A stretch of DNA of 64,000 bases from a virus. Its lineage: Duplodnaviria > Caudoviricetes. Shown piece after piece: positions 43,917-61,950 of the stretch. The stretch is from the IMG/VR virus record IMGVR_UViG_3300021400_001324, positions 1-64,000 of that record, one strand, 5' to 3'. The first letter of the stretch is position 1; the number at the start of each line of letters is the position of its first letter. The notes below the pieces were generated by a model. That model was not told the DNA's origin. It did no database searches and saw only the letters and a program-made list of their open reading frames with translations. A program made the translations under genes and the position numbers.

Positions 43917-46473
43917 AATTATTATATTTTCTAGGAATTAGTTTTCCACCTTTTCGGTTAGATTGATTAAATTTAGATATACCATAACCTGCTGGAATAA
44001 TAGTCCATACGTTTTTTAACAAGTTATCTACAGATTCATCTGTGAAGTATTTTCTTAATTGTTTAATATTCCAACCATCTTTAAGGCCTTGAGATTTTGC
44101 AATATTACTTGCTATACCTCTTGCAGAATACTCCTAATTATCTTCCATGTATTTTAAAAAGTCTTGAATTTCTTTAAAACCAATTTCTCCGTCAGAAGTT
44201 TTAAAAACGTCTTCTGGAGCAATCTATTTTGCTAGTTCAAAATTTCCATCTTTTACGGCTTGATAAAAAGGTCGTAATTGAGGACGTAGTGCTTCATTAT
44301 GTTTATACATTTCTGTTAAAATACTTGACTATCGTTCTGGAATAGTTACATTACTTGCGCCTATATTTAAACTACTACCATGGCCTCCTAGTTCATGATA
44401 TACTGTGTGTTTTATAGATTCTGGGTCAATTAATTGTGCACGATTATTTAATTTTTGATTTAGTCTAATTAATGCTTGACCTCCGATATTTTGAGCATCA
44501 CCATAAGTGTAGTTTCCTAAGTTTCTAAATACTATAGGATGAGCGTGTTCCGCGTTTACGGCTCTAACAGCTGCTATCGCCCACGCCTATTCAGGAGTGG
44601 CTCCAGACTATATCAAATGATTATAATAATCATCAGAATCAAAATACTATACCACATCATCTCTAGCTTCTGTTGCCCACTTTCTTCTAAGACCTCTTGG
44701 GAAGGAAATATCAAATTCTCCCGTCTTAGGATTATAAGTATATTCTGGTTCACTGGATCCATTTTTAATTGTATTTTGCCTCTTTATAAAACTGTTTCTA
44801 GTAAACGTAGGAATTTCTCGCATTTCTGTTTTAACTCCATTTATAATATTACTTTTTGGTGGCAGTTTAACTGAAGGATAAACGTTATACCCTGCTAACA
44901 AACGTCTGATTTGAGTTAATCTATGTGGAGTTAATGCAGAACGTGGTATTTCATCACCATATCCTACAGTAGTAATATACTCTATTAGCTCTTCATCAGA
45001 TAATAATTTTCTACTTAATATGAAATCTCTTCTAGCTTCATCAGAAGCGTTGTTTAAATTATGTTCTTGCAAAATAACATCTCTAATATCACCTTTAAGT
45101 TGATTTCTTTCTATTTCTTGAACTTCTGGAAACGCTTCTTTTAACATTTTTCGGTATTCTTTAGATGTTCCAGTTATAGTCTAATCTACAAGATGATCTA
45201 CTTCGTGTCTTAACACTCTTCTATGATTTCTTCCTTGTAATCCTCCAGATATCTATATTCTACCGTATCGTCCAAATAATGGGCTATTGTCAAACACTCC
45301 ATACGAATACTTATCTACATTATCTGCATACCCTCTTTTAGAATCCCACTATCTGTATTTAATATTTTTTAAGATTTGATTAACTTTATCTATATCTTTT
45401 TGAGTTCTGTATGTAGTTCCTGCTAAGTTTTCATTTATCTAATCTATTACAATTCCAGGAATTTTATATTCTTTATAACCTTTTGGTTTTGGCATATTAG
45501 TATTTAAGGCACGATTCATATAATAAGGTAGAATATACGGTGCAATTTCAGATTTTATAGTATATGTCAATAAAGAAGGATCAATTCCGAGCATATTTCT
45601 AACATAATCGTTTACTGCAGTTTTAGTTGCATCGGATACTATAGAACTTTTTACAGTATTTGTTGCAGCTTGTTGTAAACCTTCTGCTGTAAGGTCGATT
45701 GCTTTACTTGTAGGTCCGGATATTAAATACCCTGGATTGGTAAAATTCCATAATGTTTTTTGCCATTCTGGTAAACTTCTCCAATTTTCTCCACCACCAG
45801 CATTATATATAAGATGCCCAAAATTATCATAACCTCCAAGTTGAGAAGCACCATTAAGTAATTCTCCACCTAAAGTTCCGTACATTAAAGCTTGACCAGT
45901 TGGAGTTGCTAATGCAGATGTTAACCAAGGAGCTAACGTTGCTCCTCCAATACCTGCTGCTGTAATAGCTAATGGTGCAACAACAAATGTTCCAGCTCCA
46001 GGAGTTAATTGGTTAGCTCTAGCATCCGCAGCTTTAACATCTGCTTCATGTTTCTCTTTACTTTGTTCATACTACCATTGTGCTTGCTCTTTAAATGTTT
46101 TATCTACATCTGCATTTTTAGCTATAGGAGCAGCAAGCTCTCTAGCATATCTATCTTCAAACGATTCTCCAGTGAGATGCCCTCTAGATTTGCCGTTTCC
46201 AAGTCCTTCTATTGTAATCTCAGGCATTCCCAATTCAAATGTAGGATTGCCATATTGTACAGCATAATCAGCGGCAGCGTTAGGATTATTACCTACAGTT
46301 ACTATGTTACCGTTTTCATCAGTCCAGACTTTATCCCCTGTTTGAACAGGAAGTCCTGTATTATAATCGTTGTATACAATATCTGTTTGTGGCATTGTTC
46401 TCCATTGATAGTTTCTTTTATAAGGCTATCTTTCAATTGGAGAAGATGCATTCTCATATTTTTTAATTCTCAT
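43897..46473 (-). CDS. Ejection protein, about 858 aa, two zincin-like motifs; TAG read-through
   Basis: HEVDH at about 45193-45207 and HELGGH at about 44380-44397; three ORF-track fragments share a frame. Confidence 0.65.
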
Positions 46474-46999
46474 ATTATTTTAAGCTTAAAATTTTTACGT
46501 TTCCTATATTAATATATTATTATATAAATTTATATATAATATAGTATATAAACTACTGAATATAAAAGTATTGAAATATATAAAACTGAGATATATTCAA
46601 AGTCTAAAAAATACCCCCGTAGGTAAATATATAAAAATTAAAGTTCTGAAAATAGACCCCCGGGTGGTATACTTAAAGAAGGTGTTTTTAAAATAGAGTT
46701 AAATATAAAAATAGAGTATATTGTGAGGGAGGGGGGATACTATATCCGAAGACCCCTTCGGCGTCTTCGGAGGAAAACTAGTCCTATATATATGATATAC
46801 TCAACCTAAGCGTAACAACGCGTAGCGTGCGGGAACGGCAAAGGTCGTTCGGTAACGTTGCGGTTCGGTTGCGTGACGCAATTTTTGCGAGCATTTTTGC
46901 GAGCATTTTTGTGACTATGGTTTAAAATCATAGTGGCAATTATGTTAGCAATTTTGCAAACGAAATTGTGTGTTTATTTATCTTTAATTTCATAGTAAT
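46474..46999. other. Divergent intergenic region (strand switch, possible genome-end or origin region)
   Basis: Very AT-rich stretch, two AAATA(G)ACCCCCG-like motifs, hairpin tccgaagac-cccttcggc-gtcttcgga, then GC-rich sequence with tandem atttttgcgagc. Confidence 0.5.
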
Positions 47000-47566
47000 A
47001 TGGTAATTGAAGATAGCACTTTGGTTTCTCTTTACGGCAAAGATTTTGCCGATAAGGAAAAATCAAGTGAGGACTGCCAAAAGTCGGCTTCCAAAAAGTC
47101 GCCCCGGGTAAATGTTCCCGACGGTGCGGAAATTGTGTTTCCTGACACAATCCGCATTTTTACGGAAACAAGTAACAATGCGGCGACAAAGAAGGTGTTT
47201 TCTTTTGAAACATTCCCGTGCAAAATGAACGGGATTGACTTTAAGTTCCCTGTTGGGTGGCTCGAGAAAACGGGTTACTCAATCGTAGCCTTTGGTGCAA
47301 CAGCCAAAGAGTGCGAAGAGGACTTTAAGGAAAACACTGACCTGGAGCCGATTGAGGGTCAAACTTCAGCCTGCCAAGGTAACATCGTAGATATGTGGCA
47401 AAATGCTGCAAATCAGGATGAAGCCAAATCGGCAATTGCAGGAAAAACCTGCATTGCTCATATTGTGGGCTGGATTATGACCAAGTGGGACGAATACCCC
47501 AAGCCGTTGTTGGAGTTCACCGAAAAGGTGACCACGCCAGCAAGGGGTCGTCGTGCTTCCAAGTAG
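47000..47566 (+). CDS. Early acidic protein, paralog 1; ends in TAG
   Basis: Intact 188 aa, GC-richer codons; TAG at 47564-47566. Confidence 0.75.
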   Translation: MVIEDSTLVSLYGKDFADKEKSSEDCQKSASKKSPRVNVPDGAEIVFPDTIRIFTETSNNAATKKVFSFETFPCKMNGIDFKFPVGWLEKTGYSIVAFGATAKECEEDFKENTDLEPIEGQTSACQGNIVDMWQNAANQDEAKSAIAGKTCIAHIVGWIMTKWDEYPKPLLEFTEKVTTPARGRRASK

Positions 47567-47756
47567 TCCCGTTTTACCTTTTAGCGGTGCGTTTTAGAAA
47601 CGACTAGAGAAACGACCGCGGTCACTCACTGACCAACTGGCAAGGTTGTTGCACCAATCCGCAGGTGCGCGAACAATATCAATATGCAGTGAAATAGGTT
47701 TGTCGTGGTGGTGTACCTACTAGTAAACACCACCACATTTTTTAAATTATTAAAAA

Positions 47757-48086
47757 ATGGCTAAAGTGAATTACAAACACGAGTACGCTAATTTGCGTGA
47801 AGATGCGCTAAGTGCGCTGAGTTGCGAGTTTGATAGCGTAACTCTATGTGAAATCCCTAAACAAAAGAAAGTAAGACTTTTACCTGTTGAGGGCGAAATA
47901 GTAATCTTTTGTGGTTACCGATTGGTTGAGAGAAATAATTTCTCGTGGTCGGGTGGATTGTTTGCAAGTCAGTCAATCCCCAATTCATACATATTTATCT
48001 CAATGGGAAAATTGATACAACCACTAGATGAATGTCAGAAATACACGTGTTTAGTTTCCAATAAGAAAGTAGTTGTTTTCGAGTAG
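47757..48086 (+). CDS. Early hypothetical protein; ends in TAG
   Basis: 109-aa ORF followed by a terminator hairpin (atcccttcacacta...tagtgtggagggat-tttt). Confidence 0.6.
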   Translation: MAKVNYKHEYANLREDALSALSCEFDSVTLCEIPKQKKVRLLPVEGEIVIFCGYRLVERNNFSWSGGLFASQSIPNSYIFISMGKLIQPLDECQKYTCLVSNKKVVVFE

Positions 48087-48341
48087 CCCGTGTTTTAATC
48101 CCTTCACACTATTTTGTCGGTGGATAGTGTGGAGGGATTTTTTATTTTGATTTATTAAACCTAAACGTACCCAAATTTATAAGTAGACCAAACTAGCCCT
48201 AAGTGTAAATAAACTAGCCCTAGGTGTATGACATACGTATTTTGTGGCAGGTTAACCTGGGACTGACCTGTCACTATGTATGTGATACACATTTGTATTA
48301 CAACATACATTAGTGTCCCAGACCATAAAAAAATTATTATT

Positions 48342-48923
48342 ATGGTAGAACAAGAGGTAAATGCGTTGGTTTCCTTGTATGGAAACGATTGGCAGGAGAA
48401 ACAAAAGGACGCGTCCGCTATGTCGTCAACATCGTCTAAGCGGACTCCAGGTGGTGGTCTCAGAGATGGGGATCACCTCGTCTTTTTCGAGGAGTTTTCC
48501 ATTATGGAGGACTCCTTCATGAACGGAAAGACTCCTCAACCGTATGAGTCTTTCCCCGTTTTCAAGAACGGAAATGCCGCCAAATTATCCGTTGGCGCAT
48601 TAGCGAATGTCGGTTATAGCTGCTTCTTGGCGGACTCCGAAGAGGAGGTCGCGAAGGCTATTGCAGCTCGCGACGCAGGCGAGAATATTACTGACAACGG
48701 GGTTAGCGGTAACGTTGGCTCTGTAGTTGAGGACTGGCAGGCTGCTGGAACTCAGCAACAGGCCATTGAAGCCGTTGCAGGCGGCTCGGCAGTTGTAAAA
48801 CTCGCAGGCTACTATGCCTGCAGTTGGGATGCAGAACCTCGTAAGAGGTGGTCTATCGATTGGGTAGAAGATGAGCCCAAGCCTGCACCCAAGCCTGCAC
48901 CCAGAAACCGTCGTGGCAAATAA
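48342..48923 (+). CDS. Early acidic protein, paralog 2 (start moved to 48342)
   Basis: MVEQEVNALVSLYGNDW..., similar to 47000..47566. Confidence 0.75.
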   Translation: MVEQEVNALVSLYGNDWQEKQKDASAMSSTSSKRTPGGGLRDGDHLVFFEEFSIMEDSFMNGKTPQPYESFPVFKNGNAAKLSVGALANVGYSCFLADSEEEVAKAIAARDAGENITDNGVSGNVGSVVEDWQAAGTQQQAIEAVAGGSAVVKLAGYYACSWDAEPRKRWSIDWVEDEPKPAPKPAPRNRRGK

Positions 48924-49432
48924 TCTGAATGGTTACTTTGCTAGGTAAGTTTAAGAGGGGCTTCGTCTGGATGGACGGAGTCCCTTTTAAGATTGCTAAA
49001 GGTCGCGTGGATCCAGCTGATGAGGGCAGAACTCTCGCCCTCTTATGCCTACATTCAACTATTGGGTATTTAGTTATCAGGTATCTGGTAGTTGAATAAC
49101 CATAACAACTAACCTACATTTTTCAAATTTTCGAGGGTTAGTTATGAATAAGAGAAAATTTTGTTTCCAAAGTCGGTACAGGGACTAAGGAGTAAAAACA
49201 GAAAGAAGTCCCAAGTGGATGAGCGCTCTGTACGCTGTACGATCAATTCAAGATGTAGCACTGAAGTGAGTAAGTGTGATGAATTTGTATCGGTAAAACT
49301 ATGGCAACATAGTAGATGTGATCCTTGCAGCAAGGACGTGAGAAGGATAGAGAAGATCACTTATGCTCCAACTCTCTATCTACGTGATAATGGACATCGC
49401 TTCTACGAGAGCATCGTGTTAAGGAAGCTTTT

Positions 49433-49506
49433 GGTCTTGTGGCGCAATTGGTCAGCGCGTCTGTCTTATACACAGTAGGTTGTAGGTTCAAGTCCTACCA
49501 AGACCA
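49433..49506 (+). tRNA. tRNA-Ile(UAU)
   Basis: GGTCTTG...CT-TAT-AC...GTAGG TTCAAGT CCTAC CAAGACC A cloverleaf. Confidence 0.85.
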
Positions 49507-49535
49507 CTTTTTATCAACCTTTAAACTTCAAAATT

Positions 49536-49817
49536 ATGCAGGAAATAACTCTAGTAACACCGACTTTTGGAGCAATCAATGTTGTACCAAAATTTCTTGA
49601 TTACGATCCGAATACATTAATTATTGGGGATAAGGTAATGAACCTTGAACCGATATTACCGGATGATATCAATTTATCAGAATTAGATGACTTTCATATC
49701 ATTATCTGGGATGGCATGCATGCAAAAATCGAAGTAGTGATCAATCCAAATACTTATGTAGGCGAATTTGATGTTATGCCAGGAAATTATCAACGCCAGT
49801 TTGTTAATCCAATTTAA
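49536..49817 (+). CDS. Hypothetical protein
   Basis: Intact 93 aa, AT-rich leader, followed by a terminator. Confidence 0.6.
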   Translation: MQEITLVTPTFGAINVVPKFLDYDPNTLIIGDKVMNLEPILPDDINLSELDDFHIIIWDGMHAKIEVVINPNTYVGEFDVMPGNYQRQFVNPI

Positions 49818-49823
49818 CTTTAA

Positions 49824-49856
49824 CACCTTGCCCAGTGGTGTGAACTGGGCATTTTT
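49824..49856 (+). terminator. Terminator hairpin, near-duplicate at 50206..50236
   Basis: TGCCCAGT-GGTGTGA-ACTGGGCA-TTTTTT versus TGCCGAGT-GCTGTGA-ACTCGGCA-TTT (compensatory change). Confidence 0.7.
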
Positions 49857-49883
49857 TCTATTAACCTTTAACAACAACAGAAA

Positions 49884-50204
49884 ATGATTATTTCAGAAAA
49901 CTTAAATACTCACAAGATTATAATATCTTGTGAAGAAGATCTGCTGACTTTACATTACTTTGTAGAATTAGCAGATAAATATCTGTCCGCAATGAGTTTC
50001 CCAAATCCAACTTCTTTATACAAAGAAGAAGACATCGTAATGGGGGAAAAAGCTTATAAATTCATACCAAAAATCGTTTCAGTAAATGGACTCGCAGGAT
50101 ACGTTGTCCTTGAAGATGGTACAATTCGTTGTACTAACAAAGCATCTTCTTGGATAGCACAATTTGATGAATGCTTTGAATCAGAAATGTATTTCATCCC
50201 TTAA
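49884..50204 (+). CDS. Hypothetical protein
   Basis: Intact 106 aa. Confidence 0.6.
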   Translation: MIISENLNTHKIIISCEEDLLTLHYFVELADKYLSAMSFPNPTSLYKEEDIVMGEKAYKFIPKIVSVNGLAGYVVLEDGTIRCTNKASSWIAQFDECFESEMYFIP

Positions 50205-50257
50205 ACAGCTTGCCGAGTGCTGTGAACTCGGCATTTATGTATTTTTTATTTAGTTAA

Positions 50258-51215
50258 AGGTTGGCCTCAACCTTGGCGGGAATCAAGATTCATTATATAG
50301 TGAATCTCCTTGCCTAAATTAAGTGGCATAACCTTGTCGGTTGAATTTTGGAATAAAACCGTCTTACTCGTCACCGTGATCCCTATTGACGTACGAGGAC
50401 ATTAAAAGCTAGGGTGACCCGATATAAGTATTAGAGTGTCGGAATTGTTAGTGGTAGACCTCACTAAAAGTGACTTAAACAACAATATCATTTGATATTG
50501 GAGGGAGAAAAGTATCTAGTTTCCTGGGTTTCTAAATGGAAAGGATACTCCCTTGTTTAAGTTGCCGTACGCGTTTGTCAGTAGCGCATTTTAAATAACT
50601 GTCATTTAAAAATTATGTGTGTAGTAAGTCGAAACCCAGGTAGTAGAAGGTACTAAGAAGATTCCTAATCCTATTAACTTGATAGGTAGTTATGCTGTGT
50701 ATGATCGCTCAATAACATCGGCGGTCTACTTCGGAACTTTGAGTTTGTTGCAGCATCTCAGAGTTCAGCATAATTAGTCTGCGATCGCTGCAACGATCGT
50801 AAGACGAAGCGTTCCCCACTAGGTGGAGAGAAGTCTCTGCATCGCGACTAGTGGGATACTGCGATCCCGAGAGCAGTATAAAGAAGACGGATGTCCGAGT
50901 GATCCACGCGAGGACGTAATGTACGGTGGACAAAGGATGCAGCGCCAAGGGCATCTACAGTTCCGTGATTGGGCTAGTCGGAACATTTTTAAACATTCTT
51001 CACGAGTTGGAGAATGTCTCTAATGCAGCCATTCTTCGGAATGAGAGTCACAAGCCTCTATAAATTGCAGAGTGGAGAAAGAGAGATAAAACAGGACTAA
51101 GCTACGAAGGGTTCGACACCCACTAGTGAATATCGTTATGCAGATATCTATAGCACTGTCTGTATAAAATAGCTATTAGGATATCCCTGGATTCGGAGAA
51201 ATCTCTCTCTTTTAA
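50258..51215 (+). ncRNA. Large ornate structured ncRNA (unassigned)
   Basis: No credible ORF; many hairpins plus long-range pairs GTAGACC 50454/GGTCTAC 50723, CCTGGGTTTC 50523/GAAACCCAGG 50631, ACTAGTGGG 50847/CCCACTAGT 51119; boundaries approximate. Confidence 0.7.
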
Positions 51216-52006
51216 ACAAATTTAATAGTGCTGAAAGACCGAGGCAAGTGTAAGATGGAATAGGGCTTACGAATGGTTCAAACAGAAGCAAGAGAACAGT
51301 CAGCACGGTTTAGGTAGAAGGTACCTGTATGTTCCTAACCCTGTTAGTATAAGTTGTATTAGCAGGTATAAGTTCTGAATATCTGACAGGACGGATTTGT
51401 GCAGAAATAGTCAAGAACGCACCATAAACATTACTTGACTAACCAACCTAAAGAAAATTAATTAGGTCGTAGTATTCTACGTTTGGTTGGTTTTGGGAGT
51501 TTATAAACCCATGTAAAACCTATTTTTTTATTTAATGGTGCTGAAAGAGTAAGACAAGAGAACAGTCAGCACGGTTTAAAAAAACTCAATAACTTCCCAA
51601 GTCGTTGAGGGCACCAGTTTCTTATCTAATTAAAACGTGATAGGTGGATTAAGTAGGCAACTACGGTTGTGCGAACCATTATCAGACAGTCTTTAGATAA
51701 GTTTTAGGTGTAAAACGCGTATATGAAACATTCATTAGTACTAGAGCCTTCCCTAATAAGGAAGAGCGTGTGAGAGATGAATGTGGATAAGTCGAGTAGC
51801 TTAAGTCTCACCTCGATCATCTTTTTTAGTTTTGCTTGTTTTCTACAAATAAGCTACCAGGAGGCCTCGTCAAAGGCAACAAACTGGAAAGACTGCATGC
51901 GAAGCAAGAAAGGTTGACTGCCTATTATTGAAGCCCCTAAATTGCAGCACGATACAGGGTTTGTAAGGTTACCGTATCATTTTTGTAAACTTTAAAAAGT
52001 CAATAT

Positions 52007-52201
52007 ATGAGAAAACTTTTATTCGTAAGCAGCATGAGCTGCTTAATGGCAAGCCAGATTGTATTCTGGTTTGTTGCTGTCCTAAATATGTTAGTAAGAC
52101 AGCCTTACGATACACCGCTTTGCATAAGTGGTGTATTTGCGATTCTAACTGTTGTATTAGGATTAATAAGTCAAATAAATAATCCTAGTATAAAAAAATA
52201 A
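52007..52201 (+). CDS. Small membrane protein
   Basis: Two hydrophobic segments. Confidence 0.55.
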   Translation: MRKLLFVSSMSCLMASQIVFWFVAVLNMLVRQPYDTPLCISGVFAILTVVLGLISQINNPSIKK

Positions 52202-52221
52202 TACCGAAGATAGAATTTTTC

Positions 52222-52470
52222 ATGACAAAAAAGAAATGGCGTAAAAAAGAATTCAAGAGATTGGTATCTCTTGGATGGCCACGATATGTAGCTTCAAGAA
52301 TAGTTAGAGGTAAAACTTTAGCTTCCCTAGGTTACAAAAACTTGGATGATCTTACATTAGATCGTCAAACGTACTACAATAGTGAATTTAACACTATTGT
52401 CTATATTTTTCAAGATGAAACTTGGAAACAAGTAGAGGCTACAAAACCTTTACATTATTATTACGATTAA
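52222..52470 (+). CDS. Hypothetical basic protein
   Basis: Intact 82 aa. Confidence 0.5.
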   Translation: MTKKKWRKKEFKRLVSLGWPRYVASRIVRGKTLASLGYKNLDDLTLDRQTYYNSEFNTIVYIFQDETWKQVEATKPLHYYYD

Positions 52471-52487
52471 CTTTTAAATTAAACAAT

Positions 52488-52931
52488 ATGACACCGAACA
52501 TTAAGAAAACTGAAGCAGGAGTATCTGTACAAATTGTGCTCCCGTTCCGTGAGGGGAATAGTGTTCCCAAGCTGAGAGAGGCACCAAAATATCAGTGCCT
52601 CAAAGACAATAAGGAAGCACTGATCAGAGCTGTTAAGGCACGCATGCAAGCATGTTACGATAGCCTTGTAGAAGGAATGGATAACATCGTTTATAATGAT
52701 GGTATGTCTATTCACTACAAAGTTGATGGAAGTTATTCTTACTTTAATCTTCCAAGCTGGGAGGTTATGGAGAAGCTTCTCAAAGCACTTGAGGAAGATG
52801 CTTACTATAACTGGGACATTCCAATGTATGAGCAACTTCTCAAATCAGTTGTTCTGCATTTTGATGCTACTTACAAGAACTATGATAAGATGGTTTGTTA
52901 TTTAATTAACCATCTTGCGGTTCAAGGTTGA
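52488..52931 (+). CDS. Hypothetical protein (start moved to 52488)
   Basis: MTPNIKKTEAGVSV... after an AT-rich leader. Confidence 0.65.
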   Translation: MTPNIKKTEAGVSVQIVLPFREGNSVPKLREAPKYQCLKDNKEALIRAVKARMQACYDSLVEGMDNIVYNDGMSIHYKVDGSYSYFNLPSWEVMEKLLKALEEDAYYNWDIPMYEQLLKSVVLHFDATYKNYDKMVCYLINHLAVQG

Positions 52932-52956
52932 AATCCCTGGCTCGTTAAGAGCCAAA

Positions 52957-53014
52957 ATCTCTGACAAGTCTAGACCTTCACGTGGGTCAGAGGTCGCATT
53001 AGCGCATACTAGAC
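52957..53014 (+). ncRNA. Minimal HDV/CPEB3-like self-cleaving ribozyme fold
   Basis: P1 CTCTGAC/GTCAGAG, P2 GTCTAG/CTAGAC, L3 TTCACGT, P4 CGC-ATTA-GCG, putative catalytic C at 53005. Confidence 0.65.
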
Positions 53015-53254
53015 ATTGCTCTTTTATCTTTTCTATGCTGCGAAGAATAGTAACAGCCGCTTAAGTAAAAGGTTGAATTGCCAGATATAAATAACTGGAA
53101 CCCATAAATAGAGAGATTCGTTCAACTTCAGAATTGAATGTTATGCCTATAGCGAATTAGAATTTTTCATTTTGAAATAATTTTAGATTAATCATTGAAA
53201 GAATCTCTCTATTTTTCTTACCTTAAATAAATCCTGGGTAAGCAGGTAAATACT

Positions 53255-53524
53255 ATGCGTAAGTATAGCCGTATTAACAAAAATCGCAAGTCGGGTATTA
53301 ACCGCTCCAACCTCCGTATGAAAAAGGAACGCAAAGTTCGTGCTTTTTCATTTGCGGGTGTCAAATTAGACATCCGACTGAACAACCGTGGTGGCATCGT
53401 AGATGTTCAGCCACGTGTTGGCGATCTTTTCAATAAGATCGCAGGTCGTCAATGGGGGTTGTCAGATGTTAAGAACATCCTTCGTGATGAGTGTATCGAA
53501 TTTGCTAACTCAAATAAAGAGTAA
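53255..53524 (+). CDS. Basic hypothetical protein
   Basis: Intact 89 aa. Confidence 0.65.
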   Translation: MRKYSRINKNRKSGINRSNLRMKKERKVRAFSFAGVKLDIRLNNRGGIVDVQPRVGDLFNKIAGRQWGLSDVKNILRDECIEFANSNKE

Positions 53525-53529
53525 CAACT

Positions 53530-53892
53530 ATGGCACGAGTTGATTACAGCAAGTTTGATTACAAACAGGCCTGTGCTAAATTCAATATGGTGCGTATGCA
53601 CTATATTGGAAAGGCAGTACAGAAGGCAGAAATCAAACAAGCCATTCTTACTTCAGGTTTAGGATGGCATTCTATCCTATTAACGATCTTAATTAATCAC
53701 AAATGTGTGATTAAAGAAGGTCGTGGTCGTGCTTGTAAGTTGTTCTTCACAAAAGAACCACTCCACTTTACACAGCTCTACGATGCTCACAAAGAGTATC
53801 TGAGAGTTAGAAGAGAAATGAAGAAAGAAGCTAAACCTGTTCAAAAGGAAACTAAGAAGATTTCCTATTGGACATCAACCACGACTTGGTGA
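53530..53892 (+). CDS. Hypothetical protein
   Basis: Intact 120 aa. Confidence 0.65.
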   Translation: MARVDYSKFDYKQACAKFNMVRMHYIGKAVQKAEIKQAILTSGLGWHSILLTILINHKCVIKEGRGRACKLFFTKEPLHFTQLYDAHKEYLRVRREMKKEAKPVQKETKKISYWTSTTTW

Positions 53893-54056
53893 TGAACAAG
53901 GACCTTTTAAAGGTAATTGGAGGGCTTGCTTTTATAGTAAGCCTTCCAGTTACTATCATTCTAATTGCAGCTCCTAATAAAATTTGGGAGGCGATTATTC
54001 CATCTCTAATAATACTAGCGAGTTCTTTTTACGTTTTCTTAATAAAAAAAGATTAA
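53892..54056 (+). CDS. Small membrane protein
   Basis: MNKDLLKVIGGLAF...; two transmembrane segments. Confidence 0.5.
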   Translation: MNKDLLKVIGGLAFIVSLPVTIILIAAPNKIWEAIIPSLIILASSFYVFLIKKD

Positions 54057-54058
54057 TT

Positions 54059-54334
54059 ATGAATTATTATATTATGATTTTGTCATCAGACGATAAGTAT
54101 GATGAAATGGCAGATGAGATACTGAAACTGTTTGGTACATTGCACATTTTTTTGCGCAATGATATCAAGACAATCGAGATCAAGAATCACGAACTAGATC
54201 AGTCTATCTATGAAAAGCTGACTGAGATCACAAGGGATCTTGACGCAACAGCGTTCATGTTTAAAGCTGATCCTAACCAGCTTGAAGAAATGTGTACTTC
54301 AGAAGTTGAAACAATTCCGACTCTCAGTTGGTGA
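54059..54334 (+). CDS. Hypothetical protein (start moved to 54059)
   Basis: MNYYIMILSSDDKYDEM... Confidence 0.6.
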   Translation: MNYYIMILSSDDKYDEMADEILKLFGTLHIFLRNDIKTIEIKNHELDQSIYEKLTEITRDLDATAFMFKADPNQLEEMCTSEVETIPTLSW

Positions 54335-54476
54335 TGGAAACGTTCATCTTCTGGCTTTGTGAACAGCCGTCTTGGAGTATTCCTCTGATTCTTATCGGAG
54401 GAATGCTTCTTTCTGCTTGTATTATTACAAGTATCGCTGACTTAATAGAATTTTATAGATTTAAAAACTTTAAGAA

Positions 54477-54737
54477 ATGAAGTACCATATCAAATTCAAT
54501 GGTGGTAATGATGAAATGCTCATCATTAGTGATGAAGCATTTTACGGTTTCATCCGTGTAGCCGTTCAGCACAATCGTGATGTTACAGATTTCCACGTAA
54601 AAGCGTATCGTAATGAAATTCCATTGTATAAGACTGAATACAACGGACAAGTTCACTACTACACGTTTGAAGACTTTATGAAGTTCTTCGCGTATGAAGG
54701 AGGACAGTATCCTGACTTAAAAATGAAAATTGTATGA
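54477..54737 (+). CDS. Hypothetical protein
   Basis: Intact 86 aa. Confidence 0.6.
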   Translation: MKYHIKFNGGNDEMLIISDEAFYGFIRVAVQHNRDVTDFHVKAYRNEIPLYKTEYNGQVHYYTFEDFMKFFAYEGGQYPDLKMKIV

Positions 54738-55132
54738 ACTGTAAAGTTTGCGGATCAGAAATAGACCACGAAACATACAGTTGTGGTCCACAAATGATAG
54801 AACGTCAACTCTGCTTCACTTGTAATTTCTGGCGAGATCAGCTTGAAGCTGATAAGTTGCGTGGTGATTACAAGTGGGCAGTGATTGACGGTGGTCATTA
54901 TGTCATTGCTTCCGAAAACGAAAAAACCAGATTCAGAGGTTTTGATGGACAAAAATTTATCATTATCTTTGAAGATGGAACTATTGTTAGAACTACTAAT
55001 CTTTGGTTTCAGGGACATATCCCTGAAGAATGGAAATCTCAATTTCCTGACAATGCTGTTTTTGCTGACAATCGAAAATGGCAAAAGATTGGAGATTGTG
55101 AGTATCTTGCTCCGTCTATCTCGACGACATAG
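54734..55132 (+). CDS. Conserved phage protein with CxxC motifs; ends in TAG
   Basis: MNCKVCG...LCFTCNFW...TTNLWFQGHIP; TAG at 55130-55132. Confidence 0.7.
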   Translation: MNCKVCGSEIDHETYSCGPQMIERQLCFTCNFWRDQLEADKLRGDYKWAVIDGGHYVIASENEKTRFRGFDGQKFIIIFEDGTIVRTTNLWFQGHIPEEWKSQFPDNAVFADNRKWQKIGDCEYLAPSISTT

Positions 55133-55416
55133 AGAGGCTTTCGTAGGGCTGAAGTTACCATCCGTACAATGGTTAAACCTTACCTAGAAGCACAATAGGT
55201 ATTGTGTGATGAGAGGGCACCTTCTTATCTGAAAGAAAATGGTGACGAGGCAGCTGACAATTTGCAATACGCAGCTGTGACATAGATCTGTTATAAGCCT
55301 CCAATCGTGAGCAGATTGTGCTACTTAACAATCTATAATGAGTGTAACTTGCAAAACTCTGTAAAAACTTCCGCAAGTAGGTTGCCGACATCCCTAAGAG
55401 ATAATTGTCGGTACAA

Positions 55417-55487
55417 TGAGATTTGGTGTAATGGCAGCACACAACATTTTGGATGTTGTAGTATAGGTTCGAATCCTGTAATCTCAA
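55417..55487 (+). tRNA. tRNA-Gln(UUG)
   Basis: TGAGATT...CAACA TT-TTG-GA TGTTG...ATAGG TTCGAAT CCTGT AATCTCA A. Confidence 0.9.
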
Positions 55488-55567
55488 CTCGTTTGTCATG
55501 ATGTTTAAAGGTTAACGGCAGCTGTGCCTGCTGAACTCTGGGAAGATAGTAAGCTAAAACAGCACTC

Positions 55568-55640
55568 CGAGAATGTAGTGTAATCCGGTAACACGCCACA
55601 TTTGGGATGTGGAAATGCCGTTCAAATCGGACATTCTCGA
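55568..55640 (+). tRNA. tRNA-Pro(UGG), weak T-stem
   Basis: CGAGAAT...CCACA TT-TGG-GA TGTGG...ATTCTCG A. Confidence 0.8.
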
Positions 55641-55770
55641 CTTTATAGTCGATAAAACAGATTTGTTTGTGTGTCAGACCCATGTCTGATTGTTTTTGGG
55701 TTTTAATTACCGAAAGTATGTGAATATAAGTAGGTAATTTTTATTTGTTTAATCATTAAAACTCTATAAT

Positions 55771-56088
55771 ATGAATATGCAATTTATTCAAGAACGCATT
55801 AAAGAAATGACTGTTCCAGATCTTAAACTGGACATCACCTACGCAATCATTTATCCAACAATCGATAAGATCAAATTCTGTAATCGTTCTGAAATGATTG
55901 CAGAACTAGGCATTCTTAAAGATTGTGATATTGATCATATGGAAATTATTCTGGTAAATAAGCATATGTCAATAGAATCGGCATTACATATTGCCAGACA
56001 CTTTGATTTGGAGTATGAAGTAATGTATGACATTACTGCTAATGATATGACTCCTTATCAAGCACTTCAAGAGTGGGATATTATTTAA
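55771..56088 (+). CDS. Hypothetical protein
   Basis: Intact 105 aa. Confidence 0.6.
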   Translation: MNMQFIQERIKEMTVPDLKLDITYAIIYPTIDKIKFCNRSEMIAELGILKDCDIDHMEIILVNKHMSIESALHIARHFDLEYEVMYDITANDMTPYQALQEWDII

Positions 56089-56158
56089 TCCCACTCTTTT
56101 TTTAAATGAGAGATAATTTTATTTTGTAATTTACATTTAAACTTATAACTTTGTAGAT

Positions 56159-57022
56159 ATGGTTAGTAAAAAATATTTCGCAGAGAAAGGTCTTACTAGT
56201 ACATCAGCCAACTATTTAGCAAATGTAGGGCAAGAAGCCCTCACTGGGTACAAAACCACTTTAGACAATCTGAGATGGTACAACGAGACTATGATTCTTC
56301 TTTCATCTGGAAAGGAAGTTCCTATGGTAAATAGCAACACGCCAATTCTAGAAGAGATTAATGTCATTATCAATGAGATGAGCAAGATTAATGCCTTCTG
56401 CGCTTGGATACGTGAAGCCATTAAAGCTAAGGAAGTTCTTGAAGGAGAATTTCCTGATTTCGATGAGTGGAAATCAGATAAAGAAACAGTATCTTCACCT
56501 GCTCGTCCTCAACGTTTCACTGAAGCTGATGTTGTAGCCGAGTTTGATGTTAAGAAGCTCAATGAATATCTCACTCTTGAAGCTTATGCAGCAACTCTCG
56601 GTAAATTGATTCATCAAGGTGGTTCAATTAGCACTGCACGCAAGCAATTGCATAACGTGCTAGAGACTCCCAACTCTGTTGAGAAGATGGATAGCGATGT
56701 CGTGATCACACGCTATACTCCGATTCTTAAAGCAGAGGAAGTTGATGATTGGTACATGCAACTTCAAAATAAATACCGTGAGGTAGAAAGACAACTTAAT
56801 CAGATTAAATATCAGATTAAGGAAGAAGTTGCAGCCCGTAATCGCGTTGCTCAAACTCAATACAACGCCGAACTCAGAAAGTATAACGCAGAACAAGAGC
56901 AATTGTTTGCTGAATATCATACTGAGTCAGAGGCGTATCGTAATGAGATCTCTAAGTTGAAGATTATTGTTCCTCGAGAACTTGAGGAAACATTTAACTA
57001 CTTACAATCTTTAGGTAAGTAA
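56159..57022 (+). CDS. Coiled-coil phage protein, 287 aa
   Basis: Intact; biased codon usage; heptad-rich C-terminus. Confidence 0.75.
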   Translation: MVSKKYFAEKGLTSTSANYLANVGQEALTGYKTTLDNLRWYNETMILLSSGKEVPMVNSNTPILEEINVIINEMSKINAFCAWIREAIKAKEVLEGEFPDFDEWKSDKETVSSPARPQRFTEADVVAEFDVKKLNEYLTLEAYAATLGKLIHQGGSISTARKQLHNVLETPNSVEKMDSDVVITRYTPILKAEEVDDWYMQLQNKYREVERQLNQIKYQIKEEVAARNRVAQTQYNAELRKYNAEQEQLFAEYHTESEAYRNEISKLKIIVPRELEETFNYLQSLGK

Positions 57023-57300
57023 ACTGTAGGGATTTATAAACACTTACCTAAAGTAAATAGGTTCAAAGACTTGATTCTCATTGGAATCTAACTTTGATTT
57101 ACAAGGATAAGAAAGAAGCGTCAATTAAATAAATTATGAACATTCAAAGTTTAATTAACTTTGTTCCTTCATTGGGAAGGACTGGCGTTTCTATCGAAAT
57201 TAAAGAACTCTCTGTCTTCGTCTTCGTTGATAGAAACGGTCTTTGTCTAGGACTTAGACTTTGTTGTAGTTGTTTCTTTCTTATCTTTGACTATTTTTAA

Positions 57301-57372
57301 GCTTCTATGGTGAAACGGTTATCACGCTTGACTGTTAATCAAGTATTCTTGGTTCAAATCCAGGTGGAAGCG
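57301..57372 (+). tRNA. tRNA-Asn(GUU)
   Basis: CTTGA CT-GTT-AA TCAAG; discriminator G73. Confidence 0.9.
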
Positions 57373-57571
57373 CAAAATTTATTTGCTGGTTTTATCACCA
57401 ATACAAATCAGCCACGGAAGCATTCCTGAGAGATCCCTGATGTAATTCAAATCTGAGTAAGGTCCGATGGTTTGGAACTATTCCGGATAATGTTCCATTC
57501 AGGAGAGATAACTGTTGAGATCACAACATGAATCAATGAGCAGTACACTCCATATCAAATTGCTCATATAT

Positions 57572-57642
57572 GGCCCTGTAGTTTAGAAGCAGAACGCAAG
57601 ATTTTCATTCTTGAGAACACGGAGCGTTACCGTGCTGGGCTA
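57572..57642 (+). tRNA. tRNA-Glu(UUC), atypical T-loop AGCGTTA
   Basis: CAAGA TT-TTC-AT TCTTG; CACGG/CCGTG T-stem. Confidence 0.75.
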
Positions 57643-57716
57643 CTTTAATACAAAACTTCACCAACTATTCAGCGATTTGGAAGTTTATGCAAGTTGAGGT
57701 TTTTGTATTTAATATA

Positions 57717-57790
57717 TGCGGGGTGGAGCAGTGGTCAGCTCGTCTGTCTCATAAGCAGAAGGTCGTCAGTTCGAATCTGACCCCACGCAA
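57717..57790 (+). tRNA. tRNA-Met(CAU), fMet-like acceptor with a bulged A
   Basis: TGCGGGG TG GAGC AGTGGTCA GCTC...CT-CAT-AA. Confidence 0.8.
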
Positions 57791-57801
57791 CTTTTAAACA
57801 T

Positions 57802-57924
57802 GGGATTCTACACGAATTATTCTTTTAAGTAGATGCATATGCTTACTAGAGTATTGGGTGGTTTTAGATTTTGAAACTGCAGATATTCAAAATCTATTAG
57901 GAGGTTCGAGTCCTCTGTTTCCCT
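57802..57924 (+). tRNA. tRNA-Cys(GCA)-like RNA with elongated anticodon and D arms
   Basis: TAGATTTTGAA/TTCAAAATCTA stem around CT-GCA-GA; T-arm GGAGG TTCGAGT CCTCT; U73. Confidence 0.5.
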
Positions 57925-58040
57925 CAAATTGGAATTTATTTAATAGAAATGTAATTCTTGGTAGTGTAAGTAGGGTTCGATTCCTGTAAATAGTAACTTA
58001 CTATATTTTTATTAAATATCTAGCTAGAATTCCAATTCTA

Positions 58041-58766
58041 GATCTCGTAGCTCAGCTGGTTTTTAGAGCACCACACTTTGATTTAAGAGTGCTATGGCGA
58101 GAAATCCCATAGTAGAATCACCCAAATTCGGTGAAAATCCTTTTCTGAATAAATGGCACATGATGCAAACTGGTTATACCTTAAGGAGTGCCAGCACTAA
58201 CCAATAATGTGTAAGGACAATACCGAGCGAAAATAAGTTTAAATTTGTATGAATACATGTACGTAATACAAATGACCATTGCAACAGATAAGCACTAACA
58301 ACAATGGGGGTAGTGCAACTTATAATCGTGTAGAGACTGAACGGGTGATACCTAAGTTGAAATTGATATCCATATTAAGCATTGATAGTGATGCTGCCTC
58401 GAAAGGGTGAAACAAAGTGCAAATCTTTGAATATGAATCTTGCAAGAATTTCAATATGGTAAAGAGACAGTGAGGTTTAACCTCCACTAACTAATGTTAG
58501 ACTATAACAAATGCGATAGTATAGAGCTGTCACGGCTGTTCGGCTGATACAAACCGAATAATAAATGTGTAAAAGTTGATTTGTTTCAAACTATCGGTGA
58601 TATCTTATTTGATTATAGTAATATTAGTTAGTGCCAGACCACAACAAATGACCCTACCCAATGGGTGAATGTCAGGGTGGGAAGGAACATTCTCAATCAT
58701 TTGGCTATGGTAACATAGAGTGGTAGGTTAATGTGGGAGTCCTGGGTTCGAATCCCAGCGGGATCA
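58041..58766 (+). tRNA. tRNA-Lys(UUU) split by a group I intron (exons 58041-58078 and 58728-58766)
   Basis: Spliced anticodon arm CCACA CT-TTT-AA TGTGG; acceptor GATCTCG/CGGGATC; A73. Confidence 0.85.
58079..58727 (+). ncRNA. Group I intron, 649 nt, no ORF, with an insertion inside P7
   Basis: IGS TTAAGAGTG pairs with the 5' exon CACTT (U.G) and the 3' exon TTAA; P3 ATCACCC/GGGTGAT; GTAGAGACTG; P9 closure ACCAC/GTGGT; terminal G at 58727. Confidence 0.85.
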
Positions 58767-58922
58767 CTAAGCAGATTATCTGTATCGGGCACCGACCCTA
58801 AGGTACATACGGATACAGATGGTGAGTAATAGAGTTCGAGGATTGTTAGTGAAATAGACTTTGAAGCTGCAATACGTGCTGAACCATGAGCGGTCGGAAC
58901 GTCTCTATTAAATCTGTTTTTC

Positions 58923-59004
58923 GCGGTTGTGCTGTAACTGGTAGCCAGGTCTGGTTTAGGCCCAGATGTCGAAAGGCGTGGGGGTTCGAGTCCCTTCAAC
59001 CGCA
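58923..59004 (+). tRNA. tRNA-Leu(UAG)
   Basis: TCTGG TT-TAG-GC CCAGA, long variable arm. Confidence 0.9.
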
Positions 59005-59032
59005 CATTTAATAACAATTAATTTATTTAATT

Positions 59033-59476
59033 ATGCACAAAGTAGTTTATAATGCTTGTTATGGAGGATTTGGTTTAAGTGCAAAAGCAATAGCTTACAT
59101 TCTCCGACAGAATAAACCAGATGTTAAGCTATTCTTTTATAAGCAAGATTTTGAAAACTGGGATTGGCACTATACAAAATGTAATGAAGCTGAAGCTACT
59201 CACGTTTTTCTAAAAGACTTTGGAGACGAGTTTTATTATGCGCAAGTGAATCAAGTACAATTCAACGACAATGTTGTTTATGATTCACAAGTCTATAAAA
59301 ATCGTCACGATCCTCGCTTAATTAAGGCAGTTGAAGAACTCGGAGAAGAAGTTAATAGTGATTATTCAGAACTTCGTATTGCTGAAATTGAATCTGATGT
59401 TTACATTATCCGAGAATATGACGGTTTGGAAAAAGTAGTAACTCCAGAGGATATAAATTGGATTAAAATTGAATAA
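59033..59476 (+). CDS. Conserved phage hypothetical protein
   Basis: KVVYNACYGGFGLS...RHDPRLIKAVEELG...IREYDGLE. Confidence 0.75.
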   Translation: MHKVVYNACYGGFGLSAKAIAYILRQNKPDVKLFFYKQDFENWDWHYTKCNEAEATHVFLKDFGDEFYYAQVNQVQFNDNVVYDSQVYKNRHDPRLIKAVEELGEEVNSDYSELRIAEIESDVYIIREYDGLEKVVTPEDINWIKIE

Positions 59477-59537
59477 CTATAAATTACTTCATAATCTAAA
59501 GTAGACCTAAGCATGTCTTAAAACTGCTTAAATTACT

Positions 59538-60104
59538 ATGTTAGTATATGCACATTCTATAAACGATGTTAATAACATCTTAAAGAAAGATAGTAATCCG
59601 TTAAGAAAATGGATTAACGAAATATTTTTGGATAAGTCTAGTAAAAATTTAAGAAGAAAGAATCAAGATATGATTTTAACTAAAGTTTTTACAAAGACTA
59701 TTCATAATAATACTTATTATGCTACTGTATATGGTTGTAAGAAAGGATTACTAATAAACATATTTCTACTTGTATCTTTAGGTAATAAACAAAAAATTTA
59801 TTTAATAAGCAGTACTGGAAGTTATGTTTTATTTACTTTTGAACAACATTTTATTAACCGATTTTTAGAAAGAACTCGAAATACTCATTATAATCTGTTA
59901 ATTGCTTTAACAAGAGAATTTAACGGGTTTCCTATATTTGCTCACTCTTTAATTTTTTTAAAAGATGGAAGATGGATGTATAAATCTAGAAACGGTTATG
60001 CTATTATGGATAAAAATATTTTTATAACTTTTATTACAGATTTGAGTAATAAACAACAAGAATTATATGATAGTTGTGCACAAAAAGATTTAAGTAGATT
60101 CTAA
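59538..60104 (+). CDS. AT-rich hypothetical protein (HFINRFLER motif)
   Basis: Intact 188 aa; flanked by two pseudoknot motifs. Confidence 0.6.
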   Translation: MLVYAHSINDVNNILKKDSNPLRKWINEIFLDKSSKNLRRKNQDMILTKVFTKTIHNNTYYATVYGCKKGLLINIFLLVSLGNKQKIYLISSTGSYVLFTFEQHFINRFLERTRNTHYNLLIALTREFNGFPIFAHSLIFLKDGRWMYKSRNGYAIMDKNIFITFITDLSNKQQELYDSCAQKDLSRF

Positions 60105-60128
60105 ACTGCTTAAATTTTATTGAAGTAT

Positions 60129-60213
60129 GGGCCGATGGTGAAATTTGGTAGACACGTTGGATTTAAGCTCCAATTCCTAGTTTGGAGTGAGGGTTCGAGT
60201 CCCTCTCGGCCTA
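60129..60213 (+). tRNA. tRNA-Leu(UAA)
   Basis: TTGGA TT-TAA-GC TCCAA, long variable arm. Confidence 0.9.
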
Positions 60214-60541
60214 CTATTTCTAATAAAAATATAACACTGAGGCGGACTTTAAACGCAAAACTCCACTAAATTGGTGGGTAGGAATGTGCGAAGTATTAGA
60301 GTTGGGAAGGGTCGCTCCCTTGGTAAGTGTTGTATTTTTTAAAATAATCCTTTTCGGCGTTTACGGTGTAACAGAGCGCTGCGCTTGGTCTATGAGTACC
60401 TTGAAAACCGTTAACTGTCGTGTTAGGTAGAGGAAGCCTAACATTTAAATTGAGGTGGCAATAAAGAGCTGTTTAGCACTAAAGTAAATTTTCATTCATG
60501 CTCAGTATCCACCTATACTGAGCTTTTTAAAATTAAGGATT

Positions 60542-60964
60542 ATGACATCTGAAGAACTATTTGAGAAAGTGTCAGAACTTACGGATAAGACTTTCAAATA
60601 TAAACCTATCAGTGAAAAAGAAGCTATTGGTAAAACAATAGAGAAAATCTATACACTTTATAATGGTTGGAATGATAATTATAAAGTAATCACTTTTACT
60701 GATAAAACCGCTTTATATTATGAATGTGATAAGGATCCAGAAATACATCCTAATTTAGTAAAATCATATGGTGACATAGAAAGTGGTGTTAATGTTTATC
60801 TAACTAGTTTTGGAAGTTCACTTTATGATGAAGGTCTTTTAAATGATACTACTGAACTTTTAAAAGCTGAGGAACAATATAGATTAGCATTTCTTGAAGA
60901 AAATAGACAAGAACAAATTAGAAAACTTAAAGAAATATTAAAACAACTAGAAAATAACTCCTAA
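60542..60964 (+). CDS. Hypothetical protein
   Basis: Intact 140 aa. Confidence 0.65.
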   Translation: MTSEELFEKVSELTDKTFKYKPISEKEAIGKTIEKIYTLYNGWNDNYKVITFTDKTALYYECDKDPEIHPNLVKSYGDIESGVNVYLTSFGSSLYDEGLLNDTTELLKAEEQYRLAFLEENRQEQIRKLKEILKQLENNS

Positions 60965-60975
60965 TTACAAATATT

Positions 60976-61419
60976 ATGAATAATATAATTATTTGGCCAA
61001 CAGAACAAAATGAATTTTTTAAGAATACTGTAATTGGCAAAACTGTAATCGATATTAAAACGGATAATTATGAATATATTTCGTTTTTATTTAACGATGG
61101 GTCTGCAATGCGAATGTATCATTCGCAAAATTGTTGTGAATCAGTAATTATTGATGATATTTGTGGAGATCTAGAAGATTTGATTGGAACTCCAATTCTT
61201 ACTGCAGAATTGCGCACAAATTTTAACGATAATCCAAAAGATGAATACGATAATTCGTTTACTTGGTCATTCTATATATTTAGAACTGTAAAAGGAACTG
61301 TGGATATTCGCTGGTATGGTACAAGTAATGGATATTATTCAGAAGATGTTCATATAGAATATCATCCATCTGATATAATTTACGATAATTGGCAAAAAGA
61401 CTTTTTCAATAAATATTAA
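60976..61419 (+). CDS. Conserved phage hypothetical protein
   Basis: MYHSQNCCESVIIDDICGDLEDLIGTPIL...WYGTSNGYYSE. Confidence 0.75.
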   Translation: MNNIIIWPTEQNEFFKNTVIGKTVIDIKTDNYEYISFLFNDGSAMRMYHSQNCCESVIIDDICGDLEDLIGTPILTAELRTNFNDNPKDEYDNSFTWSFYIFRTVKGTVDIRWYGTSNGYYSEDVHIEYHPSDIIYDNWQKDFFNKY

Positions 61420-61424
61420 ATACT

Positions 61425-61757: not shown

Positions 61758-61947
61758 TTATGTACAAGTAACTTATGATGGAGATGTAAACTTAGAAATA
61801 TATGTTCATCAAAATACACCATTTGGAGAACTTAATCAAAAATCTTCTTTTGCTCTTTCTCCAGATAATGTTGAAAAATTAGCACAATGTTTAAACAAAA
61901 TTATTAAGGGAGAATCTTTTAGTATGTTAATGGATTATAATCTTTAA
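61747..61947 (+). CDS. Hypothetical protein
   Basis: Intact 66 aa. Confidence 0.5.
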   Translation: MSPNYVQVTYDGDVNLEIYVHQNTPFGELNQKSSFALSPDNVEKLAQCLNKIIKGESFSMLMDYNL

Positions 61948-61950
61948 ATT

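Follow-up and report, generated by a model that had tools for sequence, protein, structure and literature searches.

A gene-free stretch with a predicted type-P1 twister ribozyme and locally covarying RNA modules in a distant crAss-like phage

The window analysed here, a stretch of 64,000 nucleotides (nt), makes up the opening 64 kb of the IMG/VR virus record IMGVR_UViG_3300021400_001324, which is 77.8 kb long. It contains a region without genes, and the subject of this work is the putative non-coding RNA in the front part of that region (50246-51215, plus strand), to which an earlier note had drawn attention. The source phage is a distant, uncultured crAss-like gut phage. A large terminase is encoded among the minus-strand genes (306-46473), as seen from a match to phrog_6681 (E 1.2e-71); it shares 57% identity with that of an unannotated human-gut phage and about 30% with crAss-like terminases. 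The minus-strand genes, late and structural ones, form long open reading frames (ORFs) only if TAG is a sense codon, and the late genes of the phage read TAG as glutamine. The plus-strand block (approximately 46000-64000) carries small ORFs and eight or nine transfer RNA (tRNA) genes, and the RNA stretch sits within this early/tRNA block. The plus-strand ORFs are open without TAG recoding.

No credible ORF was found between 50240 and 52000 under genetic code 11 or with TAG read as glutamine (TAG=Q) or TGA as tryptophan (TGA=W), and no reading frame was common to all four homologues described below. The longest stop-to-stop frames in 50200-52050 reached at most 81 amino acids with a start codon under code 11, and at most 133 amino acids with TAG=Q or TGA=W. 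Among the recoded frames, the longest ones (50628-51023 on the plus strand, 50774-51175 on the minus strand) were startless, gave implausible translations and were broken differently in each homologue. The claim of a 1.75-kb region devoid of credible ORFs was therefore borne out, both under three genetic codes and by the frames of the homologues. Folding of the plus strand of 50240-51215 gave -291.2 kcal/mol, compared to -253.9 +/- 8.1 kcal/mol for shuffled sequences (z -4.58; 0 of 20 shuffles as good), and the minus strand gave a z value of -3.65. Along with the conservation and local covariation described below, these results uphold the earlier proposal of a structured non-coding RNA for the plus strand.

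Four sequences were compared, namely the window and the contigs L004, L161 and L172, which effectively make up two pairs. L004 (contig UViG_3300028886_000055) was the sole IMG/VR relative reached via the downstream ORF; the upstream ORF had no relatives, and the ENA and Logan contigs reached via the downstream ORF end just before the island. A pattern made of nucleotides common to two paralogous modules of the window was used to scan metagenomes. The scan of JGI metagenomes gave 26 matches, two of which were true homologues (the short contigs L161 and L172), the others being chance matches in unrelated, apparently coding sequence. Pattern scans of IMG/VR retrieved the known relative and one chance match inside a gene, nothing else, and those of GTDB genomes no homologue. 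A blastn search against 50,697 phage records gave no match except for a 50-nt element (motif C, see below), and nothing significant came out when six segments were searched by nhmmer in 1.36 Mb of sequence from crAss-like loci. Neither the core (R2) nor the tail domain (R3), each used as a covariance model on 78 crAss-like records, matched anything but the genomes of the window (G000) and of L004 (G001). The window modules are new, lineage-restricted RNA families from one narrow phage lineage.

A type-P1 twister ribozyme was identified at 51017-51078 on the plus strand by Rfam model RF03160 (59.9 bits; E 1.7e-12 for the 1951 nt searched, 50150-52100; model positions 1-68 of 68). The Rfam scan that the earlier note had proposed thus delivered one element, which was the only non-chance match in 50150-52100 at E <= 10; snoR138 (E 5.1) and RybB (E 6.1) matched at chance level. 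The type-P1 twister ribozyme was reportedly described by Roth and co-workers in 2014. All stems follow the type-P1 order, with P1 (UCUC/GAGA), P2 (UGCA/UGCA), P3 (CAUUC-UUCG-GAAUG) and P4 (AGA/UCU). The conserved parts are also present: UAA and GAGUG in L1, GCC in L2, GUCACAAGCC in L4, and UAAA. Both partners of each pseudoknot, T1 (L4 with L1) and T2 (GC of L4 with GC of L2), could be located. In T1, CAC/GUG replaces the consensus CCC (L4)/GGG (L1); the middle pair is changed on both sides from C-G to A-U, and thus the pseudoknot is kept. The window element consequently shares with the RF03160 model the P1, P2 and P4 stems, the P3 hairpin, the U-A cleavage site and both pseudoknot partners, the core nucleotides and pseudoknots being those described in PMC5408937. 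By the twister mechanism, cleavage is predicted between U51021 and A51022.

The twister had been passed over in the earlier note; the UUCG-capped hairpin mentioned there (51030-51043) is the P3 stem-loop of the ribozyme. That hairpin is real. A further UUCG, at 50730, has no stem beneath it, and L004 and L172 have lost it. The GCAA of the other reported hairpin lies within a CUGCAA hexaloop (50788-50793). The twister is kept in L004 (59.7 bits). The otherwise collinear homologues L161 (approximately 309-317) and L172 (approximately 1327-1335) lack it cleanly: about six different nucleotides stand at the site, and Rfam detected no ribozyme there. This suggests that small ribozyme cassettes may be gained or lost at module borders.

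Near the 5' border of the island lies an AT-rich stretch, TTTATGTATT...ATTTAGTTAAAGG (50234-50256), which is kept in all four homologues though the DNA further upstream differs. It is possibly a promoter or the start of the RNA; no convincing sigma-70-type promoter could be called in it. The leader (50257-50329) consists of an invariant hairpin of 7 base pairs (bp; 50257-63:50268-74), a helix around a variable hairpin and an invariant single strand, CUAAAUUAAGUGGCAU. The helix (50275-80:50309-14) displays three compensatory pairs (GGCGGG/CCUUGCC, GGACAA/UUGUCC and GAUCAG/CUGAUC). The alignments revealed that the following variable insert (50330-50445) has 116 nt in the window and is replaced by about 55 unrelated nucleotides in three homologues.

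The 5' domain (50446-50629) comprises the hairpins 50449-54:50461-66 and 50485-91:50496-502, a GUAUC/GAUAC hairpin and the 5' strand (50523-50532) of a 10-bp helix. The hairpin at 50485 is kept among the homologues with a different loop. The 10-nt complement CCTGGGTTTC (50523-50532) and GAAACCCAGG (50631-50640), reported earlier as starting in a hairpin loop, was verified: it is exact in the sequence and kept in all homologues. By our own arithmetic, a perfect 10-mer complement is expected about 0.45 times by chance in 976 nt. In L161 and L172 a G-to-A change in one strand is accompanied by deletion of the facing C, leaving 9 bp and a bulge. From the modelled pairing, a pseudoknot of the 5' domain (50523/50631) is plausible.

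The 5' domain is followed by a nearly invariant core of 230 nt (50630-50860), delimited by conservation and predicted helices. Over 50666-50860 the mean column identity of the four sequences is 95%, compared to about 85% DNA identity of the neighbouring genes. The predicted elements are the 3' strand of the 10-bp helix, a hairpin (50670-76:50680-86), a three-way junction (50687-50776), a second hairpin (50777-87:50794-805) and a nested hairpin (50815-22:50848-55). Only one-sided, G-U-compatible changes were found in the core among the four sequences. A submotif of the core (50639-50700), AGGUAG..AAGGUAC-N-UUCCUAAYCCU-[hairpin]-AGGUA, has a paralogue in module B' (51308-51380, see below); the hairpins of the two are compensated (CCUAU/AUAGG and CCUGUUA/UAGCAGG).

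The part between the core and the twister is variable. A hairpin cluster (50861-50955) is present in the window and L161, with other sequence in L004 and L172. Two hairpins then lie directly 5' of the twister (50960-51016; 50960-65:50979-84 and approximately 50994-51000:51010-16). The first of them shows one compensatory pair (C-G to U-A in L004) and is duplicated in L161 and L172 around an insert, of about 200 nt in L161 and shorter in L172.

Directly 3' of the twister, the four-sequence alignment delineated a closed multi-hairpin tail domain (51079-51212). It is made of a closing stem (51081-87:51201-07), a T-loop-like hairpin, a further hairpin (51136-46:51157-67) and the invariant GGAUAUCCCUGGAUUCGG. 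The T-loop-like hairpin, GGG-UUCGACA-CCC (51109-21), has the loop UUCGACN among the homologues, and its stem (51109-11:51119-21) occurs as GGG/CCC, AGG/CCU and GAG/CUC, i.e. with two independent compensatory changes. One compensatory and three one-sided changes were observed in hairpin 51136-46:51157-67, and one compensatory pair (G-C to A-U) in the closing stem. Over the whole tail domain, 97.7% of the cells are paired and three pairs are changed on both sides; with slid partners the paired fraction drops to 31-58%. The covariation check proposed in the earlier note, for which absence of covariation among homologues would have spoken against a functional RNA, hence revealed compensatory changes in five local helices.

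Beyond the tail, a repeat search detected a duplicated GUGCUGA...UCAGCAC-GGUUUA hairpin. One copy (51220-51312) is enlarged by a 50-nt insert, the other lies at 51530-51578 (together 51220-51578), and the two flank module B' (51312-51530, with a T7 run at its end). In L004, module B' is 99% identical and follows motif C, whereas in the window it precedes motif C, a rearrangement consistent with recombination at the duplicated hairpin. Overall, modules were inserted, replaced, duplicated or reordered as units among the four homologues. A CRISPR-like or tandem array was ruled out by the repeat search.

The earlier picture of one ornate RNA held together by long-range helices was not sustained: covariation is all local, modules are swapped, and the predicted twister cut splits the stretch. 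When stacks of at least six pairs kept in all four sequences were scanned over long range, many candidates emerged, as expected for a purine/U-rich composition. The only stacks over more than 150 nt that were changed on both sides used the U-run 51208-51215; no helix spanning more than 150 nt showed meaningful covariation in the four sequences, and all covarying helices are local, with spans of at most 130 nt. The complementarity 50453-50460/50723-50730 is present and invariant in all four, and RNAalifold picks other partners for these strands. Two alternative partners had been proposed for CTAGTGGG (50849). All four sequences are compatible with the local pairing to 50816, and the distal one at 51119 is contradicted. 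The distal pairing is unlikely since it overlaps the CCC strand of the covarying hairpin GGG (51109-11)/CCC (51119-21).

A second ribozyme-like element, motif C (51579-51722, plus strand), was found in the same ORF-free region, beyond the part covered by the earlier note. Its layout is UUCCCAAG-N-P2b (CGUU)-GAGGG-P1b (CACC)-variable stem-P1a (GGUG)-U^AA-P2a (AACG)-C, corresponding to the pattern AAAAAACUCAAUAACUUCCCAAG-NNN-UUGAGGGCACC-AGUUUCU-[variable stem]-AGUUUUAGGUGUAAAA-NN-C. The exact pattern occurs in at least 117 IMG/VR stretches, and the motif in at least 144 IMG/VR contigs (the window; L001, L002, L012-L127, L178-L204). When read as circularly permuted, an L4-like UCCCAAG, P2b, GAGGG, P1b, a loop-closed extended P1, P1a, U-AA and P2a follow each other in twister order. 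A P1-L1-P2 core with UAA opposite GAGGG, as well as T1 to the CCCA loop, are present as in twister ribozymes. P2 covaries without exception (n=109: CA/UG 86, UG/CA 20, CG/CG 2, UA/UA 1), and none of 500 shuffles of an alignment of 34 sequences (A5) reached the observed covariation. The middle pair of T1 is C-G in more than 100 contigs; in 27 contigs with variants it is paired in every case (A-U 21, U-A 4, G-C 1, U-G 1). P4 and T2 are absent from motif C; only one nucleotide stands between UCCCAAG and P2b, so there is no 3' strand of P4. Over the 161 nt searched, the motif matched no Rfam twister model even at E <= 10. Lacking P4, T2 and a twister match in Rfam, it is called twister-like and not twister. 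If it cleaves as twister does, the cut would fall at U51711/A51712. Should motif C prove active, it would represent a minimal permuted twister with the cut at its 3' end, a mirror image of type P1.

Motif C led to comparable loci in other crAss-like phages. Among 50 records reached via the motif (G001-G050), 17 gave a twister-P1-like match, all of them below the gathering score; phage twisters are therefore missed by annotation at the gathering threshold. These twister loci are typically ORF-free gaps of 0.9-1.6 kb. In many of them Rfam places RAGATH-6 directly 5' and RAGATH-7 directly 3' of the twister, and further RAGATH-7-assoc, one to three hatchet ribozymes, RAGATH-14 and tRNAs. The matches in these gaps have E values of 1e-14 to 1e-41, and those of RAGATH-6, RAGATH-7, RAGATH-14 and hatchet beside the twisters 1e-15 to 1e-41. 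For at least 12 of these 17 loci (L137 at 1238-1552, L143, L146, L144, L149, L135, L140-L142, L147, L148 and L150), motif C lies 130-340 nt upstream of a same-strand type-P1 twister, with RAGATH-6 or another RNA in between. In L137 the RAGATH-6 match starts 8 nt downstream of the predicted motif C cut. As judged from these arrangements, the RNA between motif C and twister would, once excised, carry a 5'-OH at one end and a 2',3'-cyclic phosphate at the other. Such a motif C-twister cassette resembles the engineered 'Tornado' design for circular RNA. In many other phages motif C stands 20-40 nt before a start codon. The order in the window is reversed, the twister coming first and motif C last.

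Ribozyme-associated RNA islands thus already occur in other crAss-like phages, and the earlier suggestion of a new class has to be narrowed: the kind of locus is already known, and it is the modules and the twister insertion polymorphism that are new. RAGATH motifs, taken here from Rfam 15, were reportedly introduced by Weinberg and co-workers in 2015. In the window region, as in islands of this type, 1-1.5 kb of the tRNA-bearing strand is free of genes, further modules and tRNAs lie nearby, and a type-P1 twister has folded RNA directly 5' and 3' of it; the domains on both sides covary, in a phage neighbourhood. The window region differs in that about 770 nt of RNA precede the twister, compared to 152 nt for RAGATH-6, and in that motif C lies 3' of the twister, whereas it lies 5' in the other phages. 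RAGATH-6, RAGATH-7, RAGATH-14 and hatchet gave no match in 50150-52100 at E <= 10.

The earlier note had been reminded of GOLLD and ROOL without assigning the RNA to either, and rightly so: neither model matched over the window at the gathering score or in 50150-52100 at E <= 10. At the gathering score, Rfam detected tRNAs and no large-RNA family in the whole window. Group I or II introns, transfer-messenger RNA, RNase P, 6S RNA and riboswitches were rejected as well, with no Rfam or ARAGORN signal. With GOLLD and ROOL, which lie near phage tRNAs (PMC5737381), the island shares a length of several hundred nucleotides, many stems, a phage host and the proximity to tRNA genes. In contrast to them it displays no multistem junction network or long-range pseudoknot supported by covariation, it is found in one phage lineage and not over several phyla (PMC5737381), and a predicted self-cleaving ribozyme lies within the window RNA. 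Bacterial self-cleaving ribozymes occur in clusters and in the vicinity of phage genes, possibly serving to process polycistronic transcripts (PMC6765202). The hammerhead and hepatitis delta virus-like (theta) ribozymes of phage operons and tRNA clusters are similar to the present case as small ribozymes that punctuate transcripts near tRNAs in phages with recoded stops (PMC6765202). They belong to other ribozyme classes, and the window ribozyme flanks long structured RNAs instead of a tRNA. Theta ribozymes in phages were also reportedly treated by Kienbeck and co-workers in 2024.

The stretch 50246-51215 is probably the front of a ribozyme-punctuated non-coding RNA island made of separately folding modules, the released RNAs of which would act in trans. 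We infer that the island is transcribed, where its transcript starts, and that cleavage actually takes place. Transcription would proceed rightwards along the plus strand through a chain of domains: leader, 5' domain with its candidate pseudoknot, core, variable hairpin inserts, twister and a closed domain of 135 nt. Cleavage by the twister would leave a multi-domain RNA of about 770 nt ending in a 2',3'-cyclic phosphate, and the piece with the ribozyme and the tail domain would start with a 5'-OH. The later modules would end at motif C, perhaps with a second cut at 51711/51712. The stable folded RNAs set free in this manner could act in trans early in infection, as protein-binding scaffolds or decoys; by analogy, a trans-acting role appears most likely. 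The invariant core and the covarying helices point to selection on the RNA itself.

Several observations weigh against this explanation. A promoter search of the island identified none. The twister score lies below the Rfam gathering threshold (59.9 versus 67.2 bits), a shortfall mostly due to short loops. Two of the four homologues lack the twister, so the RNA on its 5' side cannot require the cut. The core never varies, which leaves its helices as predictions, and in the tail domain 21 of 500 column shuffles do as well as the real alignment, a weak statistic. The covariation statistics in general are weak, as only four sequences, effectively two pairs, were at hand. Finally, the trans-acting role is drawn from analogy with other phage structured RNAs only.

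The island might instead form one large ornate RNA of a new class, a single folded unit like GOLLD or ROOL, of about 770 (or about 970) nt, that would depend on all of its domains at once and of which the twister only trims the 3' end. This is unlikely, yet deserves consideration. The piece 5' of the twister cut would indeed be one molecule of about 770 nt, about 1.1 kb stays joined in the twister-less L161 and L172, the 230-nt core is far more conserved than the neighbouring genes, complementarities over 100-280 nt are conserved (50523/50631 and 50453/50723), and tRNAs are near as for GOLLD and ROOL (PMC5737381). However, helices spanning more than 150 nt lack covariation and chance complementarities are common in purine/U-rich sequence; the conserved parts are interrupted by large modules that have been exchanged or inserted, and no GOLLD, ROOL or other large-RNA model matches a sequence that is limited to one narrow lineage. 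A more specific proposal, which is given a rather low probability, takes the RNA of about 770 nt, with its invariant core, as a new large phage RNA class forming one particle (a scaffold or multimer like ROOL or GOLLD). The twister and motif C would define its exact ends (2',3'-cyclic phosphate and 5'-OH), through which a host ligase of the RtcB type could also ligate or circularise the pieces.

Another possibility, considered quite improbable, is a long structured 5' leader or operon spacer without a function of its own, in which ribozymes would separate messages and set the stability of messenger RNA. It agrees with the position of motif C shortly before start codons in many other phages, with the proposed processing of polycistronic transcripts by ribozymes (PMC6765202) and with the ORFs that follow the island at 52007. 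A leader of 1.75 kb would be very long, though; the stretch 50240-51215 is separated from the next ORF by at least about 800 nt that include terminator-like T runs, and selection on the RNA is indicated by the near-invariant core and the covarying helices. An element acting at the level of DNA (for instance an origin of replication, a site for packaging or a hotspot of recombination) would account for the dense inverted repeats in a gene-free region, for the shuffled modules and for both strands folding better than shuffles, but the ribozyme works only as plus-strand RNA, several conserved G-U pairs are C-A mismatches on the other strand, and the cumulative GC skew makes no turn between 46000 and 56000, which renders this option very improbable. 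Hardly credible is a protein-coding sequence hidden by an unusual genetic code or by frameshifting. TAG is recoded in the late genes, and a stop-to-stop frame of 131 codons with TAG=Q (50628-51023) covers the core; this frame nevertheless has no start and a translation unlike a protein, every homologue interrupts it in a different way, through indels of a length not divisible by three, and the core, with hardly any changes, shows no excess at third positions.

Early regions of crAss-like phages hold large unexplained gene-free parts, and here one such part appears to be selected as RNA. crAss-like phages are among the most abundant gut viruses. If it is a ribozyme-punctuated island, it consists of exchangeable folded modules with self-cleaving ribozymes inserted or lost at their borders, and it adds uncatalogued RNA families, namely the core, the tail domain and module B'. 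These modules share their genomic niche with the RAGATH RNAs, the function of which has been open since 2015. The presence/absence polymorphism of the twister offers a natural experiment on the contribution of ribozyme cutting.

The 5' border of the island is an intrinsic-terminator hairpin, TGCCGAGTGCTGTGAACTCGGCA (50211-50233, plus strand; 8-bp stem with five G-C pairs and a T-rich tail), which belongs to the small ORF 49884-50204 upstream. In L172, too, the RNA comes after this ORF end and hairpin. A near-identical terminator hairpin, TGCCCAGTGGTGTGAACTGGGCA (49829-49851), ends the preceding ORF (49536-49817), and the stem differences between the two are compensatory. On the 3' side, motif C is followed by a trailing non-coding stretch (51723-52000, plus strand) with two terminator-like hairpins, as judged from sequence and fold, and then by the ORF 52007-52201. 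Further upstream in the same block, the ORF 48276-48923 (215 amino acids) has a G+C content of 0.51-0.54, compared to about 0.38 around it, and may be a recent acquisition.

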